64,000 nucleotides of DNA from an uncultured Actinomycetes bacterium (GTDB lineage Bacteria; Actinomycetota; Acidimicrobiia; IMCC26256; DASPTH01). Below the pieces are notes generated by a model. It had not been told where the DNA came from and did no database searches. It saw only the letters and a program-made list of their open reading frames with translations. A program made the position numbers and the translations under genes. This document shows positions 10,752 through 59,061 of this stretch, one piece after another (position 1 is the first letter of the stretch; the number at the start of each line of letters is the position of its first letter). Location of the stretch: assembly GCA_963721435.1 (NCBI GenBank), contig CAVRJC010000003.1, positions 8,183 to 72,182 on the forward strand, read 5' to 3'.

Positions 10752-11699
10752 ATGAGCTCGAACCCTCCCGACACGAGTCCCCGTTACATGGGCGGGCAAG
10801 CGGTTGTCGAGGGCGTCATGATGCGCGGCGAGCGCACGTGGGCGGTGTCGGTTCGCACTCCGGAAGGCGACATCCAGACCGAGCTGCACGACGCCCCGGC
10901 CTGGGCGGAGCGGTGGTCGAAGATCCCGCTCGTCCGTGGGGTGATGGCGCTGGGCGAGTCGATGGCGCTCGGGTTCAAGGCGCTGTCGTGGTCGGCCAAC
11001 ATCCAGCTGCCGGAGGAGGAGCGGATCTCGGGCAAGGCGATGGGCTGGACCATCGGGATCGCACTCGCCTTCTTCACTGCGATCTTCATCGTGCTGCCGG
11101 CGGTCGCGGCCAACGGCATGGGAAACATCTTCGGCCTCAGTGGCTTCTGGTTCCACGTCTCCGAAGGCGCGCTCCGGCTGGCGATCTTCCTCGGTTACCT
11201 GCTCCTGATCGGCTGTCTCAAGGACATCAAGCGCGTGTTCCAGTACCACGGCGCCGAGCACAAGGCGATCGCAGCCTACGAGAACGACGCGCCGCTCACG
11301 CCTGAGTCAGCCCAACGGTTCACGACCCAGCACGTGCGCTGCGGCACCAACTTCCTCCTGACGGTGATGGTCGTCACCATCATCGTGTACTCGTTCGTCG
11401 GCCGTCCGTCGTGGCCCTACCTCATCGGGTCGCGCATCGTCCTCATCCCGTTCATCGCCGGGTTGAGCTACGAGGTGATCCGCTACGCGGCCCGGCACAT
11501 GCAGCACCGGTGGGTTCGTATTCTCATGCGCCCAGGCCTGCTGCTCCAGAAGCTCACGACGCGTGAGCCGAGCCTCGACCAAGTCGAAGTCGCGATCGTG
11601 TCGCTGCGCGCGGTGCTCACCGCGGAGCAGCTCGCCGAGGTGAACGCTCGCGCTGCGTACGCAGCACCGGCACCGACCACTCGGCCCGCGATCGCCTGA
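10752..11699 (+). CDS. DUF1385 domain membrane protein
   Basis: GGQAVVEGVMMR, FQYHGAEHK, HVRCGTNF, LQKLTTREP. Confidence 0.9.
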   Translation: MSSNPPDTSPRYMGGQAVVEGVMMRGERTWAVSVRTPEGDIQTELHDAPAWAERWSKIPLVRGVMALGESMALGFKALSWSANIQLPEEERISGKAMGWTIGIALAFFTAIFIVLPAVAANGMGNIFGLSGFWFHVSEGALRLAIFLGYLLLIGCLKDIKRVFQYHGAEHKAIAAYENDAPLTPESAQRFTTQHVRCGTNFLLTVMVVTIIVYSFVGRPSWPYLIGSRIVLIPFIAGLSYEVIRYAARHMQHRWVRILMRPGLLLQKLTTREPSLDQVEVAIVSLRAVLTAEQLAEVNARAAYAAPAPTTRPAIA

Positions 11700-11772
11700 T
11701 TCCCTGTTGTCTTCGGCGTTCTCCACGCTGCGCTGCTTGCAATCGCCACTCTGCGTGTGCGAGACTTCACGC

Positions 11773-11948
11773 CGTCACTCTCCGTGAGGTTCCGCGGAGG
11801 GTGGCGGGTAAGGAGCTGAGACCGCCAGGACCTTCGGTCACCTGGTACAAGTACCTGGCGCGAGCGCAGTGGTGAGACCGGCCTTTCCCTGAGTCGCGGG
11901 CGACGTTTCGGCGGACAGTGCCGAGACCAGGGGAAACAGGGGAACCCG
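11773..11948 (+). ncRNA. Candidate structured cis-regulatory 5' leader (unassigned family)
   Basis: Several nested stems, mutually exclusive pairings, and a last stem adjacent to the RBS. Upstream promoter-like TTGCAA-N18-GAGACT (11737-11766). Confidence 0.35.
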
Positions 11949-14156
11949 ATGGGCGAGGGATCGACGGCAACTCCCAAACAGCGCGCGTCGGACCATCGTC
12001 GCGCGCGCGCAACGCTTGCCGGGGTCCTCTTCACGCTCGTCGTCGCAGTGGCGGTGACGCCGTTCGCAACCGCCTGGGCCGACACGAGCACTCTTCCCAC
12101 GTCGGTCGAGACGACGAGCGGGTCCTCGCACGCCACGCGCTTCTCTGCCGCCGAGGCCGTCGCGCCGAGCGCCGATCCCGTGCCGGGAACACTCACCATC
12201 AATGCGGGTGGCGACCGCGTCGGCGGCGACATCGCGGGGGCAGCTGGTGCAGTCTTCAGCCTCTACACCGATGCCGACCTCACGGTGCCGGCGACGCCGG
12301 CCACGTGCGGCCCGACGAACGCAAGCGGCGTGTGCTCCGTGTCACTACCGCCCGGAACGTTCTACGCCGTGGAGACGACGGCGCCGCCCGGGTATCAGAC
12401 GCTGCCGCAACTCGCCACCGACCCTGACGACACCACTCGTGACTACACGAACGCGATCGGCCCGCTCACGATCACGTCGGGCAGCACTGTGACGATCCCC
12501 AACAACACCGGCTTGTCCACGAGCGATTACAACTACAACTCGGGCAAGTACTCCAACCGCCGGGTCAACCCGCCGTTGCCGTCGGTGTGCGGCTTCAACA
12601 TCGCGTTGGTGCTCGACATGTCGGGCTCGATCGATGACACCGAGTTCGGCCAGATGAAGGCCGCGGCCAAGGACTTCGTCACGTCGCTGGGTGGCACGCC
12701 GTCGTCGGTCGGCGTCTATCCGTTCGCGACTGCTGCACCTGCAGCAGGGAACACCAATCTCGCAGCCACCTCGGTGTCGACCGCCGCCGGCGTCACCACT
12801 GTCACGGACGCGATCGACAATCTGGTGAAGCCGACCGAGGGCAGCTCGACGAATTGGGACGCCGCGCTCGCGCAGATCCCGAGCGGGTACGACCTCGTGA
12901 TGGTCCTCACCGATGGCAACCCGACCGTCGACAGCACCAGTGTCAGCCCGTCCGGCACGAACTTCCACCGGATCGAGAACGGCATCGCGTCGGCCAACAC
13001 GGTCAAGACGCTCGTCGGCGGCCATGGCGCGAACACCCGCGTGCTCGGCATCGGCATCGGCATCGGCGCCGAGTCGGTCAAGAATCTCGCCGCGATCTCC
13101 GGGCCGACCGCATACAACGGCTCGAATGCCGCGACCGCCGACTACTTCACGACCGGCTTCGACACGCTGCGCGACACACTCGCATCGATCGCGAAGGCGC
13201 AATGTGTGGTGGATCTCGTGATCACGAAGAACGCGAGCCAGCCGGCGGTGTCGGTGGGCCAGCCGTTCAGCTACACCGTGGCCGTCGACAACCTCGGTCC
13301 GTCGGGCGCCACCGTCGATGCGGCGGTTATCGACGTCTTGCCTGCCGGCGTGTCGTTCGTGTCCTTCGTCGAGCTCCCTCCCGGCGTGGTCTGCGATCCG
13401 CCGGTCGGTCGGACGATCTCCTGCACGATTCCGAAGGGGCTGCTGGAGCTGGCCGACCCGCCGGTGTCGATCACGATGAATGTGACGGTGGCGTCGACGC
13501 CACAGACTGTCCCGCTGGTGAACAAGGTCATCGTGACGAGCTCCGACGATGCAGCGCCCTGCGCGGTGACCCCCACCGACATCACATGTGAGCCGGCGAA
13601 CACGAACAACTACGACGACGTGTCGGTCGGCTTCACCAGCCTCACCATCGTCAAGGACGCGCAGCCGAAAACCTCGACACCGTTCCAGTTCACCGTGACG
13701 GGTGGCGCCCTACCGTCCAGCTTCTCGCTGGTCGATGACGGCACCAACGGCAACCGTCAGGTGATCGGGAACATCGCGGCCGGCCAGCAGTACGTCATCA
13801 CGGAGTTCCAGCCTGCCGACGGCAGCTATGCGCTCAGCGCCATCAGCTGTACAGGCGGCGGGACCGGGTCGACGATCGTCGCCCTGGCGCGGGCGTCTCT
13901 GACCCTCGCTCCTGGTGACCAGGTGGTCTGCACGTTCGTGAACGGGGCCATCGACCCGGGCGGCGTGAGCACGACGACCGGCGCCGGCTCGGGCACGGGC
14001 ACCGGCACGGGAACGAGTGCCGGGCCGCTCGCATTCACCGGTTCCGGCATCGCGCGGATCTTCGGGCTCGGCATCCTGCTCGCCGTGTTGGGTCTGGCGC
14101 TGGTGGTCGAAATGCGACGCCGGCGCCGCCCTGACGACCGCATGGGTGTCACCTGA
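11949..14156 (+). CDS. Sortase-anchored surface protein with VWA, DUF11-like and prealbumin/SpaA-like domains
   Basis: N-terminal hydrophobic signal; MIDAS DMSGS and LTDG; DLVITKNA..YTVAVDNLGPS; C-terminal LAFTG, transmembrane helix and RRRRR. Confidence 0.8.
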   Translation: MGEGSTATPKQRASDHRRARATLAGVLFTLVVAVAVTPFATAWADTSTLPTSVETTSGSSHATRFSAAEAVAPSADPVPGTLTINAGGDRVGGDIAGAAGAVFSLYTDADLTVPATPATCGPTNASGVCSVSLPPGTFYAVETTAPPGYQTLPQLATDPDDTTRDYTNAIGPLTITSGSTVTIPNNTGLSTSDYNYNSGKYSNRRVNPPLPSVCGFNIALVLDMSGSIDDTEFGQMKAAAKDFVTSLGGTPSSVGVYPFATAAPAAGNTNLAATSVSTAAGVTTVTDAIDNLVKPTEGSSTNWDAALAQIPSGYDLVMVLTDGNPTVDSTSVSPSGTNFHRIENGIASANTVKTLVGGHGANTRVLGIGIGIGAESVKNLAAISGPTAYNGSNAATADYFTTGFDTLRDTLASIAKAQCVVDLVITKNASQPAVSVGQPFSYTVAVDNLGPSGATVDAAVIDVLPAGVSFVSFVELPPGVVCDPPVGRTISCTIPKGLLELADPPVSITMNVTVASTPQTVPLVNKVIVTSSDDAAPCAVTPTDITCEPANTNNYDDVSVGFTSLTIVKDAQPKTSTPFQFTVTGGALPSSFSLVDDGTNGNRQVIGNIAAGQQYVITEFQPADGSYALSAISCTGGGTGSTIVALARASLTLAPGDQVVCTFVNGAIDPGGVSTTTGAGSGTGTGTGTSAGPLAFTGSGIARIFGLGILLAVLGLALVVEMRRRRRPDDRMGVT

Positions 14157-14190
14157 CATCTCCCTCACACGGACGTGTCATCCTCGCGTC

Positions 14191-15486
14191 GTGCCGGCCC
14201 AGGCGTCGTCCCGTGAGCGCGTCTCCCACGTCATACGACGTCTGTCGATGGGGGCACATCCCGAGGTGCTCGCCGATCTGCGCGACACCGGGGCCGCGAC
14301 GGCGCGGGCGCTCGACCTGTCGGCCGCCCCGGCGGCGCCGCTGAACTTCCCGGCCCCGGCCGACTACACGGCCAGCCGGGACCTCACGACGATCGCCCAG
14401 CCGATCTCGTGGTGGTTCGCGCGGATGGCGAGCCCCGACCGAATGATCGAGGAGCGCCTCGTCTGGTTCTGGCACGACCACTTCGCCACCAGCCTCGCGA
14501 AGGTTCTCCAGCCCTACCTGATGTGGAAGCAGCACCTGACCCTGCGCCAGCACGCCACCGGGAACTTCGCCGACATGCTCAAGGCCGTCTCGCGCGACCC
14601 CGCGATGGTGCTGTACCTCGACGGCATCAAGAACTCGGCGCAGCAGCGCAACGAGAACTTCGGCCGCGAGGTGCTCGAGCTCTTCACCATGGGCCGCGAC
14701 GGCGGCTACACGCAGGACGACGTCGTCGCCGCGTCGCGAGCGTTCACCGGCTGGGTCGTCGACGTCCCCGGCCGCATCGGCAACCAGCTCAACTCGCCGT
14801 GGAACGCGGTCTTCGTGGCGCGTCGTCACGACACCGGCGTGAAGACGTTCCTCGGGAAGACGGGCGCGTTCGACATGGACGGCGCGCTCGACGTGGTCCT
14901 CGGGCACCCGTCGACCGCGAAGTTCGTGGCCGCGAAGTTGTACCGCGAGATCGTCGGCACGACTCCCACCGACGCGACAGTCCAGCGCCTCGGCAAGACG
15001 TTTCGCCGCGACTACGAGATCATGCCGTTGGTCGAGGCGATCGTGCAGGACGACGCGTTCGTCTCCGACGACGCGGTGCGGTCGAAGTACCGGACCCCGG
15101 TCGAGAAGGTCGTCGCGATCATGCAGGCGAGTGGCACCGACGCGGTGAACCTCGGGCAGGTGCGTGCGCGTGCGACGCAGAACGGGCGGCGAGGCTCGTT
15201 GTCGACGGCGCTGCGCACGATGAGCTATCTCCCGTTCCTCCCGCCGAACGTCGGCGGCTACCCGAAGGGCGCGCGTCTCATCGGGCCGGGGAACCTCGTG
15301 CACTCCTTCGACCTGCTGCAGTCGGTGGTCGCGCCGCCGACGAAGCGCCAGTCGGTCGACGACGTGTTCGCATCGCTCGGCGTGTTCGATGTCAGCGACC
15401 GATCGCGCGCGGTCCTCGCGAAGCAGCACAGCCCGTCGACCCGCTTCTCGCTCGCGGTCACGTCACCGGAGTTCACGCTCACATGA
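14191..15486 (+). CDS. DUF1800 family protein
   Basis: ERLVWFWHDHFAT, DPAMVLYLDG, NENFGREVLELFTMG, YTQDDV. Confidence 0.9.
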   Translation: MPAQASSRERVSHVIRRLSMGAHPEVLADLRDTGAATARALDLSAAPAAPLNFPAPADYTASRDLTTIAQPISWWFARMASPDRMIEERLVWFWHDHFATSLAKVLQPYLMWKQHLTLRQHATGNFADMLKAVSRDPAMVLYLDGIKNSAQQRNENFGREVLELFTMGRDGGYTQDDVVAASRAFTGWVVDVPGRIGNQLNSPWNAVFVARRHDTGVKTFLGKTGAFDMDGALDVVLGHPSTAKFVAAKLYREIVGTTPTDATVQRLGKTFRRDYEIMPLVEAIVQDDAFVSDDAVRSKYRTPVEKVVAIMQASGTDAVNLGQVRARATQNGRRGSLSTALRTMSYLPFLPPNVGGYPKGARLIGPGNLVHSFDLLQSVVAPPTKRQSVDDVFASLGVFDVSDRSRAVLAKQHSPSTRFSLAVTSPEFTLT

Positions 15487-16789
15487 ACGCGCACATGTCG
15501 CGCCGGCGCTTCCTCACCGGCCTCGGTGTCGCGACGACTGCCGCGGTGGCGGCCGGGTACGGCCTCACGGTGTGGCAGAGCGACGGTTCGTCGGGAGGAT
15601 CGGGCACGGCGGCTGCGCCGCGTCCGACGACCGGAGCGCTCGGGCCCGGCCGCGCCGACCGCACCCTGATCGTCCTCGAGCTCGGAGGTGGGAACGACGG
15701 GCTCAGCACGGTCGTACCGATGGCCGACCCCAACTACCGCGCGCTGCGGCCGACGCTTGCGGTCGCGGATGCCATCGCGCTCGACGACTCCGTCGGCCTG
15801 AGCCCGAAGCTGGTCAAGCTCGCGGAGCGCTACAAGGCGGGGCAGGTCGCGATCATCGAGGGCGTCGGCTATCCCGACCCGAACCTCTCGCACTTCGCGT
15901 CGCTCGCCTACTGGTGGACGGGCACGCCGGGTACCGGTGACGGCAGCGGGTGGATCGGTCGGTACCTCGACGGCACGGTCGGGTTCGACGACCCACTCGC
16001 AGCGATCAGCATCGGTCCGGTCCCGTCACCCGCGCTCCTCGGCAACCAGTCGTTCGCGACGTCGATCGCCGACACGACCGGGCTCCAGCCGTCGGTGCCC
16101 GCGTGGGCCGACACCCCGGACGATCTCATCGCCGCGTGGGGCGGGTTCACGCCTGCGTCGCCAGATCCCGCGTCGCTGCTCGGGCAGGTCCAGGAGGCGA
16201 TCCACCTCACGGTGAAGGCGCGGTCGCAACTCGACGCCGACCTCAGCGACGCCCAGTCGTCGACGGGGCCGAGCGATGGCCTGTACGCCAACCAGGCCGG
16301 CAAGCAGGGGAGCACCGTCTCCGAGTCGTTGAAGCTCGCGGCCCAGCTCGTCGTCGCCAAGCACCCGCCGCGGGTCATCTACGTGAGCGGCCTCGGCGAC
16401 TACGACACCCACCAGGGTCTGGCCGCTCGTCACCCGGTGCTGATGGCCGACCTCGACCTCGGTCTCGATACGTTCTTCACCACGCTCGACACCGCGGGCG
16501 GGACCGATCGCGCGCTGGTGATGACGGTGTCGGAGTTCGGGCGCCGGCCGGCCGAGAACGGGAGCGGCACCGACCACGGCACTGCGGCGCCGCACTTCCT
16601 CATCGGGGCGGGCGTCAAGGGCGGGCGCTACGGCGCGCCGCCGAGCTCACCCAGCTCGACAACAACGGCAACCTCGTGCACACGGTCGACTTCCGCACGT
16701 TGTACGCCACCGCCGCGCAAGGCTGGCTCGGCGTCGACGCCGAGGCAATCGTCGGCAAGGGCTTCGCGCCCCTCCCTGTCCTCGCCTGA
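15483..16789 (+). CDS. DUF1501 family protein with Tat signal (apparent -1 frameshift near 16646)
   Basis: SRRRFL, LGGGNDGL, YPDPNLSHF, YDTH, SEFGRR, GTDHG. The C-terminus LDNNGNLVHTVDFR lies in another frame. Confidence 0.88.
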
Positions 16790-16806
16790 CCGGTTACCGT
16801 CCCCGC

Positions 16807-18111
16807 ATGAAGGTGGGGATCTTCTACGAGCACCAGTTGCCGCGGCCGTGGGAGGAAGGCGCCGAGGCGCGGCTCATCCGCGACGCGCTCGACCAGTGCG
16901 AGCTCGCGGACGCAATCGGGATCGACTACGTGTGGGAGGTCGAGCACCACTTCCTCGAGGAGTACAGCCACTCGAGCGCGCCCGAGGTGTTCCTCGGCGC
17001 GGTGTCGCAGCGCACGAACCGCATCCGCCTCGGTCACGGGATCGTGCAGACGCCGCCGCCGTTCAACCATCCGGCGCGCGTCGCGGAGCGTGTGGCGATG
17101 CTCGACCTCGTGTCGGCCGGCCGCGCCGACTTCGGTACGGGTGAGTCGTCGTCGGAGGCGGAGCTCGGCGGGTTCCTCATCGATCCCGAGGAGAAGCGCG
17201 CGATGTGGGAGGAAGGCCTGCGGGTCGCGCTGCGGTGCATGACGGAGACACCGTTCACCGGGCATGCCGGCCAGTACGTCACGATGCCGCCGCGCAACGT
17301 GGTACCCAAGCCGATCCAGAAGCCGCACCCGCCGGTGTGGGTGGCGGCGAGCCGGCGCGAGACCATTCACCTCGCGGCACAGAAGGGCATCGGCGCGCTC
17401 GCGTTCGCGTTCATCAATCCCGAAGAGGCGCAGCACTGGATGACCGACTACTACGACACGCTCGCGGCGGAGTGCGTGCCGATCGGCGATGTCGTCAATC
17501 CCAACGTCGCGTGCGTCACCACCTTCATGTGCCACGAGGACGAGAGCGTCGCGATCGATCGCGGCCTCGAAGGCGCCAACTTCTTCGGATACTCGCTCGC
17601 GCACTACTACGTGTTCGGCCGTCATCAGCCGGGTCGCACCGACGTGTGGGCCGAGTACCGAGCACAGCGTGCGCAGCAGGGCTACTCGCCGGAGGCGGTC
17701 GAGGCCGCCATGACCGAGGGCGAGCGGCTCGGCGCGCAGATCGTGCAGCAGGAGGGCTTCTTCGGCCTGCGCGGCGCCATCGGCACGCCCGACCAGATCC
17801 GTGACTACCTGCGGCGCTACGAGGATGCCGGCGTCGACCAGGTGATCCTCTGCAGCCAGTCGGGGCACAACCGGCACGAGCACATCATGGAGAGCCTCGA
17901 GCTGTTCGGCCGCGAGGTCCTGCCGGAATTCATCGAACGCGACGAGCAGGCCCAACGCGACAAGGCGAAGCGCCTGGAGCCGGTGCTCGCCGCCGCGATG
18001 GCCCGCAAGCCGGCGTCCGATCATCCCCCTCTGGCCATCGACGACTACGAGTTCGCGGCGATGCCGCTCGATCCCGCGCTCCGCGCGCTACAGGACGATC
18101 TCTTCTCCTGA
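16807..18111 (+). CDS. LLM-class flavin-dependent oxidoreductase
   Basis: WEVEHHF, HPARVAERVAMLD, PKPIQKPHPP. Confidence 0.9.
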   Translation: MKVGIFYEHQLPRPWEEGAEARLIRDALDQCELADAIGIDYVWEVEHHFLEEYSHSSAPEVFLGAVSQRTNRIRLGHGIVQTPPPFNHPARVAERVAMLDLVSAGRADFGTGESSSEAELGGFLIDPEEKRAMWEEGLRVALRCMTETPFTGHAGQYVTMPPRNVVPKPIQKPHPPVWVAASRRETIHLAAQKGIGALAFAFINPEEAQHWMTDYYDTLAAECVPIGDVVNPNVACVTTFMCHEDESVAIDRGLEGANFFGYSLAHYYVFGRHQPGRTDVWAEYRAQRAQQGYSPEAVEAAMTEGERLGAQIVQQEGFFGLRGAIGTPDQIRDYLRRYEDAGVDQVILCSQSGHNRHEHIMESLELFGREVLPEFIERDEQAQRDKAKRLEPVLAAAMARKPASDHPPLAIDDYEFAAMPLDPALRALQDDLFS

Positions 18112-40664: not shown

Positions 40665-41632
40665 AGATCCTCGTCTTCCTCGAGCATCACGGCAGTGAGC
40701 TGACCAAGGGATCGCTCGGTGTCCTCGCGAAGGCTGTCGCGCTGGGCGGCGGCGATGTCGCCGCGGTGCTCGTCGGTGGTGACGACGTCGCGGCACTCGC
40801 GGGTGAGGCGGGGAAGTTCGGTGCCGCGTCGGTCTACGTCGCCACCGACGACGCGTTGAGTCCGCCGCTGCCGCAACCGCGGGTCGACGTGCTCGATGCG
40901 TTGGTCCGTGCCCAGGGCTTCGACACCGTGATGTTCTCCAACTCCGTGCTCGCGGCCGATGTCGCCGCCGGCCTGGCGGCGCGGCTCGAGGCCGGTCTCA
41001 ACTGGGATCTCATCGACCTCGTGGAGCAGGACGGCGAGCTCGTCGGGAAGCGCCCCGCGCTCCAGGACTCCGTGCTCGTCGACGTCGCGTGGCGCTCGCC
41101 GCAGCGGCTCGCGCTGTTCCGCACCGGTTCGTTCGACGCCGTGAGCACTGGCGGCGACGCGCGGGTCGAGACGCTCGGCGTCGAGCTGCAGGACCACTCG
41201 ACCGGCGCGACGATCGTGAGCCAGGAGCTCGCGGCGAGCGAGGGCCCGTCGATCGAGGATGCGGAGGTGATCGTCGCCGGCGGTATCGGCCTCGGCTCCG
41301 CGGAGAACTTCTCCCTCGCCGAGACCCTCGCCGAGATCCTGGGCGGCGCGGTCGGCGCGACGCGCGCGGTCGTGTACAAGGGCTGGTACCCGCACGCGGC
41401 GCAGGTCGGTCAGACCGGCAAGACGGTCACGCCGAAGCTGTACATCGCGTTGGGGATCTCGGGCGCGGTGCAACACAAGGTCGGCATGCAGAACTCGAAG
41501 GTGATCGTCGCGATCAACAAGGACCCGAACGCGCCGATCTTCGAGTTCAGCGACCTCGCGGTCGTCGGCGACGTGCATACGATCGTGCCCGAACTCGTCG
41601 AGCTCCTCCGCGCCCGCAAGAGCTCGTCGTGA
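40661..41632 (+). CDS. etfA: Electron transfer flavoprotein alpha subunit
   Basis: QVGQTGK, GISGAVQHKVGM, AINKDPNAPIF. Confidence 0.95.
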   Translation: MKILVFLEHHGSELTKGSLGVLAKAVALGGGDVAAVLVGGDDVAALAGEAGKFGAASVYVATDDALSPPLPQPRVDVLDALVRAQGFDTVMFSNSVLAADVAAGLAARLEAGLNWDLIDLVEQDGELVGKRPALQDSVLVDVAWRSPQRLALFRTGSFDAVSTGGDARVETLGVELQDHSTGATIVSQELAASEGPSIEDAEVIVAGGIGLGSAENFSLAETLAEILGGAVGATRAVVYKGWYPHAAQVGQTGKTVTPKLYIALGISGAVQHKVGMQNSKVIVAINKDPNAPIFEFSDLAVVGDVHTIVPELVELLRARKSSS

Positions 41633-58488: not shown

Positions 58489-59061
58489 TCAGCCGGAGGA
58501 CGGGGGCTCCCACGGCTGGAGCCACGGGGTCGACGGCCAGCCCTCGGCGGCGGCCATGATCGGGAACGCGGTCGCGCCGTCGATCGATTCGCGCACGATG
58601 TCGGCGTGGCCGGCATGCCGTGCGGTCTCGGCGATGAGGTGCAGCACGACCCACCGCACCGACCACGCGTCGACGTCGGCGGGGAACCACGGCACTCCCT
58701 GCGGCACCGGCACCGGGTGGTCGAGGCTCAGTCCCCGCACGACCTCCTCGGTCTCGCGTGCGACCGCGTCGTAGCGCTCGAGCGCGCTCGCGACCGTCTC
58801 GTCGGGGAGCAGGCGGAAGTTGTTCTCGTAGTCCTCCTGCGACATACGGTCTTCCTCGAGCACCATGCCGGTCCAATTGCGCTCGACGCTCGCAACGTGC
58901 TTGATCAGCCCGCCGACGCTGAGCGGGCTCACCGACGGCGTGGCGCGCGCCTGCTCGTCGGTCAGCCCGTACGCGGTGAGGCGCATCACGTAGCGCTGCT
59001 GCGCGAGCGCGGCGAGGAGCTGCTCGCGCTCGTCGGGGATCGGGGGAGCCATTCCCGGCAT
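58489..59061 (-). CDS. DinB/DUF664 family protein
   Basis: LIKHVASVE, LHLIAETARHAGHADI.RE. Confidence 0.85.
   Translation of the reverse strand: MPGMAPPIPDEREQLLAALAQQRYVMRLTAYGLTDEQARATPSVSPLSVGGLIKHVASVERNWTGMVLEEDRMSQEDYENNFRLLPDETVASALERYDAVARETEEVVRGLSLDHPVPVPQGVPWFPADVDAWSVRWVVLHLIAETARHAGHADIVRESIDGATAFPIMAAAEGWPSTPWLQPWEPPSSG

Follow-up and report, generated by a model that had tools for sequence, protein, structure and literature searches.

The leader described here lies in a 64-kb window (the whole stretch of DNA that was analysed), between a gene for a DUF1385 protein (10752-11699) and the open reading frame of a surface protein (11949-14156, + strand). As judged from Pfam, NCBIfam and the translation, the latter encodes 735 amino acids with a signal peptide, a SpaA prealbumin domain, a VWA domain carrying a DMSGS MIDAS motif, and DUF11 repeats. 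Its C-terminus reads LAFTG, followed by a hydrophobic stretch and RRRRR, and NCBIfam matches both the DUF11 repeat and the LAXTG tail. The combination of signal peptide, SpaA, VWA and DUF11 domains and an LAFTG tail indicates a sortase-anchored adhesin. A search for related loci using the adhesin returned one distant relative only. Genes encoding DUF1800 and DUF1501 proteins follow (14017-17144), the DUF1800 reading frame as called overlapping the 3' end of the adhesin gene. The block of adhesin, DUF1800, DUF1501 and luciferase-like genes sits between the DUF1385 gene, itself downstream of rho, and prfA-prmC.

In an earlier note the adhesin leader (11773-11948) had been described as a riboswitch-type cis-RNA that matched no known riboswitch and might be a new one, and an Rfam scan and a search for homologues and covariation had been proposed. 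The scan gave one Rfam match within the 64-kb window, to RF03169, the c-di-GMP-II-GAG riboswitch aptamer, at full length on the + strand (11803-11892; 44.9 bits, gathering score 40 bits; E = 3.8e-7 in a local search and 1.5e-5 over the whole window). A riboswitch-type element in the leader of a surface adhesin gene is thereby confirmed. It does match a known riboswitch, since it exceeds the curated threshold, and it is not new, as RF03169 is already in Rfam and 53 of the 61 genomes examined from the same order contain the family. The guess that it might sense a second messenger fits, since RF03169 belongs to the c-di-GMP-II clan. The parent model RF01786 (c-di-GMP-II) scores 24.5 bits at the same site, below its gathering score of 53.5 bits, so that the element is not a canonical member, and the model of the GCG variant (RF03170) gives no match at the aptamer site. 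A covariance model built in this work (R1) scores the aptamer at 51 bits. Weak matches to the Rfam families mir-9242 and mcrA, and of R1 at 41194, 44651 and 61548, were put down to chance. The parts of the aptamer are as follows.

11803-11892, + strand: c-di-GMP-II-GAG aptamer (RF03169, R1, and covariation of every helix)
11806-13 with 11882-89, + strand: helix P1, GGGUAAGG/CCUUUCCC, with one U-U
11815-16 with 11864-65, + strand: helix P2, 2 bp, from the family alignment
11823-29 with 11854-60, + strand: helix P3, CGCCAGG/CCUGGCG, from the family alignment
11835-38 (CGGU) with 11877-80 (ACCG) and 11839-42 (CACC) with 11871-74 (GGUG), + strand: pseudoknot, loop strand CGGUCACC (11835-42)
11874-80, + strand: signature GAGACCG

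The aptamer is on the same strand as the adhesin gene, in a 5' leader position, with 56 nt between its end and the ATG at 11949. Each of the eight pseudoknot pairs is canonical, with A11875 and G11876 bulged, and 13 of the 13 invariant family columns (of 32 members) are kept. It resembles RF03169 in its P1-P2-P3 architecture, its pseudoknot from loop to 3' tail, the GAGACCG signature, a score above threshold, and a 5' UTR placement before a gene for a secreted or surface protein. Within that family it scores low, only 4.9 bits over threshold, because 13 nt are inserted in the P3 loop and the outer part of P1 is weak. P1 contains one U-U mismatch and lacks its three outer pairs, and P2 is one pair short. 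At 11841-11858 the insertion looks like a local duplication (ACCUGGUAC ... UACCUGG). It also allows an alternative 5-bp helix, CCAGG (11825-29) with CCUGG (11841-45), which would abolish the pseudoknot.

Homologues and covariation were both found. Relatives supplied 85 distinct aptamers, and two alignments were made, one of 32 sequences with MAFFT and one of 86 based on the model. Across the 85 distinct sequences, 86.2% of the cells of the family structure, pseudoknot included, are paired, against 36 to 44% when the partners are slid. Compensatory changes occur in 19 of the 26 pairs, among them all six P3 pairs; the model-based alignment is biased towards the structure, and the MAFFT-based count concurs. 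The family pseudoknot is 98.8% paired and includes two covarying pairs (GC58/AU27 and UA43/CG35).

Comparison of folding energy with shuffled sequences, also proposed in the earlier note, gave a divided answer. Both modules that flank the aptamer are significant, namely a hairpin at 11773-11806 (dG -24.5, z -5.29, none of 200 shuffles as good) and a three-way junction at 11884-11936 (dG -27.1, z -3.58). Folded as one piece, the 176 nt do no better than chance (z -1.26; opposite strand +0.44), and the aptamer region alone gives z +0.76, as expected of an RNA that depends on a pseudoknot for its key helix. Homology and covariation, not folding energy, establish the aptamer. The small margin of 4.9 bits and a nested folding energy no better than that of shuffles would both be compatible with a GC-rich intergenic stretch that crosses a low Rfam threshold by chance. 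Such a chance resemblance is highly improbable, given the E-value over the whole window, the retention of all 13 invariant positions, the eight canonical pseudoknot pairs, and near-identical aptamers before orthologous or similar genes at the related loci L090, L054 and L043. The stretch 11803-11892 is a member of RF03169, a further one before the expected type of gene, and as such a matter of routine annotation.

The stems that had been read by eye all exist as complementarity; several are not functional helices, however, and the defining pseudoknot was overlooked. CUCUCCG/CGGAGGG (11778-84/11795-801) is the core of the 14-bp hairpin at 11773-11806, and CGCCAGG/CCUGGCG, given as the second of two competing options, is family helix P3. 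The first option, UGGCGG/CCGCCA (11802-07/11822-27), is complementary but absent from all MFE and centroid folds, and it clashes with P1 and P3. GACC-UUC-GGUC and GGUA-CAAG-UACC are likewise present as complementarity but are minor local alternatives in the P3 loop. The second of them sits inside the 13-nt insertion, and the GGUC of these small stems is the invariant pseudoknot strand of the family. GAGACC does recur at 11818, 11874 and 11923; the first two copies are family consensus and the third is locus-specific. The idea that the third copy is a conserved decoy was rejected, as it is missing from L090, L054 and L043. On balance, the earlier observation is partly confirmed and its interpretation partly supported.

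The signature GAGACCG of the window aptamer (with G11876, A11877 and G11880 as the putative variant bases G, A and G, their mapping to the ligand pocket being taken from the family name) is common to 24 other members, and 54 members have GAAACCG. Both types coexist within single genomes. The genome under study is a case in point, as its second aptamer copy (G000:C12:1537987-1538071, L001) is of the AAG type, with A in the signature where the window has G11876. An intrinsic terminator was found at 26 of 54 GAAACCG-type loci and at none of 25 GAGACCG-type loci. In the AAG-type loci the 5' arm of the terminator is the pseudoknot plus P1 3' strand, and loci with a terminator built on this strand are thus ON switches. 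GAAACCG-type aptamers mostly precede a gene for a small secreted protein (approximately 90 amino acids), whereas GAGACCG-type aptamers precede larger surface or polysaccharide genes. These encode adhesins (SpaA/VWA; L022 and L024), GT2 and GH114 polysaccharide enzymes, Ig-like surface proteins, Tat-secreted proteins and a LuxR-type regulator. At one locus (L091 461-541, - strand, G010:C8) a second, weaker aptamer match (36.6 bits with R1) lies about 1 kb from the main match.

Consensus scans returned no promoter and no terminator at the locus; the promoter was instead deduced from the alignment of related leaders. Those of L090, L054 and L043 have a common layout of a -35 element, an 18-nt spacer and a -10 element, (T/G)AGACT or CATACT. 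The features upstream of the aptamer are as follows.

11737-11742, + strand: putative -35 hexamer TTGCAA, aligned with TTGGAA, TTGAAT and TTGAC of L043, L090 and L001
11746-11758, no strand assigned: BldD-box-like palindrome 1, CCACTCTGCGTGT, core CAC-N5-GTG, in the 18-nt spacer (6 of 8 fixed positions)
11761-11766, + strand: putative -10 hexamer GAGACT, aligned with TAGACT (L090) and CATACT (L043)
11773-11806, + strand: 5' hairpin of 14 bp (11 Watson-Crick, 3 G-U), with box 2 in its 5' arm
11775-11787, no strand assigned: BldD-box palindrome 2, TCACTCTCCGTGA, roughly +2 to +14 relative to the predicted start (8 of 8 fixed positions)

From TTGCAA-18-GAGACT, the probable start of transcription is predicted near 11771-74, in which case the whole structure would be transcribed. 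The N-terminus of the L090 target protein resembles that of the adhesin, as judged by eye.

In Streptomyces the BldD box is a 13-bp pseudo-palindrome with the consensus TNAC-N5-GTNA (PMC4151990). The pattern CAC(T/G)C-N3-GTG occurs twice at the adhesin promoter, in the spacer (11747-57) and at 11776-86. A box stands in the same spacer position as box 1 in L043, L090, L001 and many other loci, and the equivalent of box 2 (CCACTCCACGTGG) is found in L090 and L054. Boxes lie within 150 nt upstream of 53 of 85 c-di-GMP-II-type aptamers, compared with 1 of 85 control segments, a count that overstates independence because many AAG-type loci are orthologous. The background in the upstream regions of this genome is 2.4 to 3.6%. 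Among GAG-type loci, which precede different genes, 15 of 25 have a box. Loci with a box, either in the spacer or just after the -10 element, include L001, L003, L007, L014, L015, L022, L043, L054 and L090, and several of the copies are identical to the canonical TCACGCTGCGTGA (PMC4151990). A third box in the 3' arm of the hairpin was considered and rejected, as CACCCTCCGCG is without a GTG half-site.

A BldD homologue is encoded elsewhere in the genome.

G000:C8:98225-98695, - strand: BldD homologue, 162 amino acids, HTH_3 plus BldD-like_C (71.7 bits, Pfam)

The protein carries RQD-FNGQMLTI-RHDD, which fits the c-di-GMP signature RXD-X8-RXXD. It is 44% identical to BldD, and its NCBIfam BldD score of 154.7 is below the equivalog cut-off of 250. 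A box (TCACGTACAGTGG) lies approximately 95 nt upstream of its gene. Orthologues (80 to 88% identity) occur in many related MAGs, and an upstream box is present at 34 of 46 of these loci, compared with 2 of 46 controls. In the genome as a whole, 18 of the top 30 high-scoring boxes are intergenic, compared with approximately 21% non-coding sequence (from crude gene calls). High-scoring boxes at G000:C6:~38020, C4:~247476, C4:~94981, C4:~58858-58942 and C11:~88262 adjoin genes for a WhiG-type sigma factor, a GGDEF-EAL protein, a small LAFTG-anchored protein, a UDP-sugar dehydrogenase and a polysaccharide sugar transferase. The high-scoring boxes may mark a BldD-like regulon that also takes in surface and matrix genes.

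The system resembles that of BldD-(c-di-GMP) in Streptomyces in that box 2 fits all fixed positions, a BldD homologue is present, and boxes likewise stand before bldD, a WhiG-type sigma gene and a GGDEF-EAL gene. It differs in that the lineage is Acidimicrobiia-like, the homologue scores below the equivalog cut-off, and the predicted boxes are coupled to riboswitch leaders. A literature search found no description of such coupling of BldD boxes with c-di-GMP-II riboswitch leaders.

The 5' hairpin persists when the aptamer is enforced and is a module separate from it. Three of its pairs are G-U and can form only in RNA of the plus strand, which argues that the hairpin is real as RNA. Since it also begins at the predicted 5' end with z -5.29, and most boxes of relatives point the same way, an unusual trait in a palindromic operator, it could be purely an RNA feature, such as a 5'-terminal stabiliser, in which case the CAC-N5-GTG boxes would not serve as BldD operators. 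Such a role is rather unlikely, because box 1 and many of the relatives' boxes lie between -35 and -10 and hence cannot be in the RNA, because the box is conserved in relatives and the long hairpin is not, and because the canonical TCACGCTGCGTGA is among the box sequences and 34 of 46 orthologous bldD loci have the same box upstream. The first stem is best read as a predicted BldD-type operator at the DNA level which, at the window locus only, would also form a stable 5' RNA hairpin.

Downstream of the aptamer, the junction adjoining the ribosome binding site, which had been picked out in the earlier note as UUUCCCUG/CAGGGGAAA, proved to be real and stable, and it is plausibly the expression platform. 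Its closing helix is of 8 bp with one G-U, because there are four G in the 3' arm.

11884-11936, + strand: three-way junction, expression platform (dG -27.1, z -3.58)
11884-91 with 11928-35, + strand: closing helix of the junction, 8 bp, whose 5' arm shares 11884-89 with the P1 3' strand
11893-96/11901-04 and 11905-13/11919-27, + strand: hairpins of the junction
11937-11951, + strand: second CAGGGGAA copy with Shine-Dalgarno AGGGGA (11938-43) and ATG (11949-51), from reading of the sequence

In the ligand-free ensemble the junction pairs have probabilities of 0.9 to 0.97, except for the terminal pair at 0.66. P1 and the junction are mutually exclusive, because they share 11884-11889. The 3' arm of the junction is the first of two tandem CAGGGGAA motifs, and the junction ends 2 nt ahead of the Shine-Dalgarno sequence, which in turn stands 5 nt before the ATG. 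The nearest relatives show no such three-way junction with a doubled Shine-Dalgarno-like motif.

In the proposed mechanism, P1 and the pseudoknot would hold the pyrimidine-rich anti-Shine-Dalgarno strand (11881-11891) when ligand is bound, leaving both the start codon and the purine tract CAGGGGAAACAGGGGAA unpaired, which would allow translation of the adhesin. When ligand is absent, the anti-Shine-Dalgarno strand would pair with the first CAGGGGAA copy, closing the junction against the ribosome binding site, or less often with the Shine-Dalgarno copy itself; either pairing would lower initiation. The window locus is without a terminator, so control is probably translational, unlike that of clostridial class II switches, which are mostly transcriptional.

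Constrained folding is in part consistent with this. With the aptamer enforced, the unpaired fraction of the region around the ribosome binding site (11934-11955) rises from approximately 0.45 to 0.70 and that of the AUG from approximately 0.5 to 0.92; accessibility of the Shine-Dalgarno sequence barely moves (0.52 to 0.59). The OFF state is not a clean one, because the anti-Shine-Dalgarno strand pairs with the Shine-Dalgarno copy at a cost 3.2 kcal/mol above that for the first CAGGGGAA copy. Thermodynamic modelling gave no clear sequestration of the Shine-Dalgarno sequence in the ligand-free state, and the direction of switching, which constrained folding did not settle, consequently rests on analogy and on the relatives. 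At many GAG-type loci the P1 3' strand pairs best with the Shine-Dalgarno/AUGGGC region. AUGGGC (Met-Gly) starts many GAG-type target genes (11949-11954 in the window, L003, L005, L009, L011, L016, L022 and L039). As it is complementary to GCCC(A/C) at the 3' end of the aptamer, the start codon may itself be part of the switch.

In C. difficile, the class II c-di-GMP riboswitches (RF01786) that precede the genes of the adhesins CD2831 and CD3246 turn expression ON (PMC11477304), and a further switch of this class stands before the type IV pilin operon. The window element precedes the same kind of target, a sortase-anchored adhesin, and probably follows the same ON logic. From this analogy and from the relatives, the adhesin riboswitch is most likely a translational ON switch. 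It could instead be an OFF switch, or act through a Rho effect on transcription or through mRNA stability and not through ribosome access. The Shine-Dalgarno sequence is largely unpaired in the ligand-free ensemble, and the leader is approximately 175 nt long with unstructured C-rich stretches. Furthermore, it seems contradictory for an ON switch to be paired with BldD-type repression at high c-di-GMP, whereas an OFF switch would make both layers coherent. These alternatives are nevertheless unlikely, because there is no terminator-like element at the locus, the AAG-type relatives are plainly ON switches, as are the characterised class II switches before adhesins, and the P1 3' strand is complementary to the Shine-Dalgarno/start region at many GAG-type loci.

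Immediately after the DUF1385 stop codon (11700-11727) stand UUCCCUGUUG and GUUCUCC, which are complementary to the Shine-Dalgarno/start region of the adhesin gene (11937-11959); a 261-nt fold that includes this stretch has z -3.28. As it lies upstream of the predicted promoter, it could silence only read-through transcripts.

The ligand of the window aptamer is most likely c-di-GMP; the element shares fold class and clan with the class II riboswitches (RF01786). Our confidence in this ligand is moderate, as none has to our knowledge been validated for the GAG variant. The variant reportedly stems from a paper in PNAS in 2017, where it is said to have been proposed as a possible class of altered specificity. 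It was not described in the NAR 2017 paper. A GAG variant of the same fold and family might sense a signal other than c-di-GMP, for instance another cyclic or a linear dinucleotide. The two aptamers of this genome, that of the GAG type in the window and that of the AAG type at G000:C12:1537987-1538071, would then report two inputs. Consistent with such a change of ligand are G and not A at 11876, giving GAGACCG where parent-like copies have GAAACCG, a score of the window copy 20 bits lower with RF01786, and the coexistence of the two types in one genome with different expression platforms and different target genes. A different ligand is nonetheless doubtful: the GAG-type targets, adhesins and exopolysaccharide enzymes, are a textbook c-di-GMP regulon, the same promoters bear boxes for c-di-GMP-dependent BldD, and, save for one signature base, the conserved aptamer positions are identical in both types. 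Matches to GGDEF and EAL domains number 14 and 8, respectively, in the genome.

Taken as a whole, the locus is best explained, with a probability of about 80%, by a member of RF03169 in the adhesin leader that probably acts as a translational ON switch behind a predicted BldD-box promoter. The boxes and the BldD homologue suggest two-layer control of the adhesin by c-di-GMP. It is a tentative extension, more doubtful than not, that most genes with c-di-GMP-II-type riboswitches in this lineage are doubly controlled by one messenger, through BldD at the promoter and the riboswitch in the leader.

The logic of such an arrangement is speculative. BldD repression at high c-di-GMP together with a riboswitch that turns ON would be either incoherent or a band-pass. 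If BldD represses at high (micromolar) c-di-GMP and the riboswitch turns ON at far lower concentrations, the adhesin would be made only at intermediate c-di-GMP. If the GAG variant reads a different ligand, BldD and the riboswitch would form a two-signal gate. The locus offers a clean example of the GAG variant beside an AAG-type copy in one genome, which helps with the question of the GAG ligand. More broadly, the co-occurrence of boxes and riboswitches (53/85) points to combined control by c-di-GMP at the transcriptional and RNA levels in these uncultured actinobacteria.
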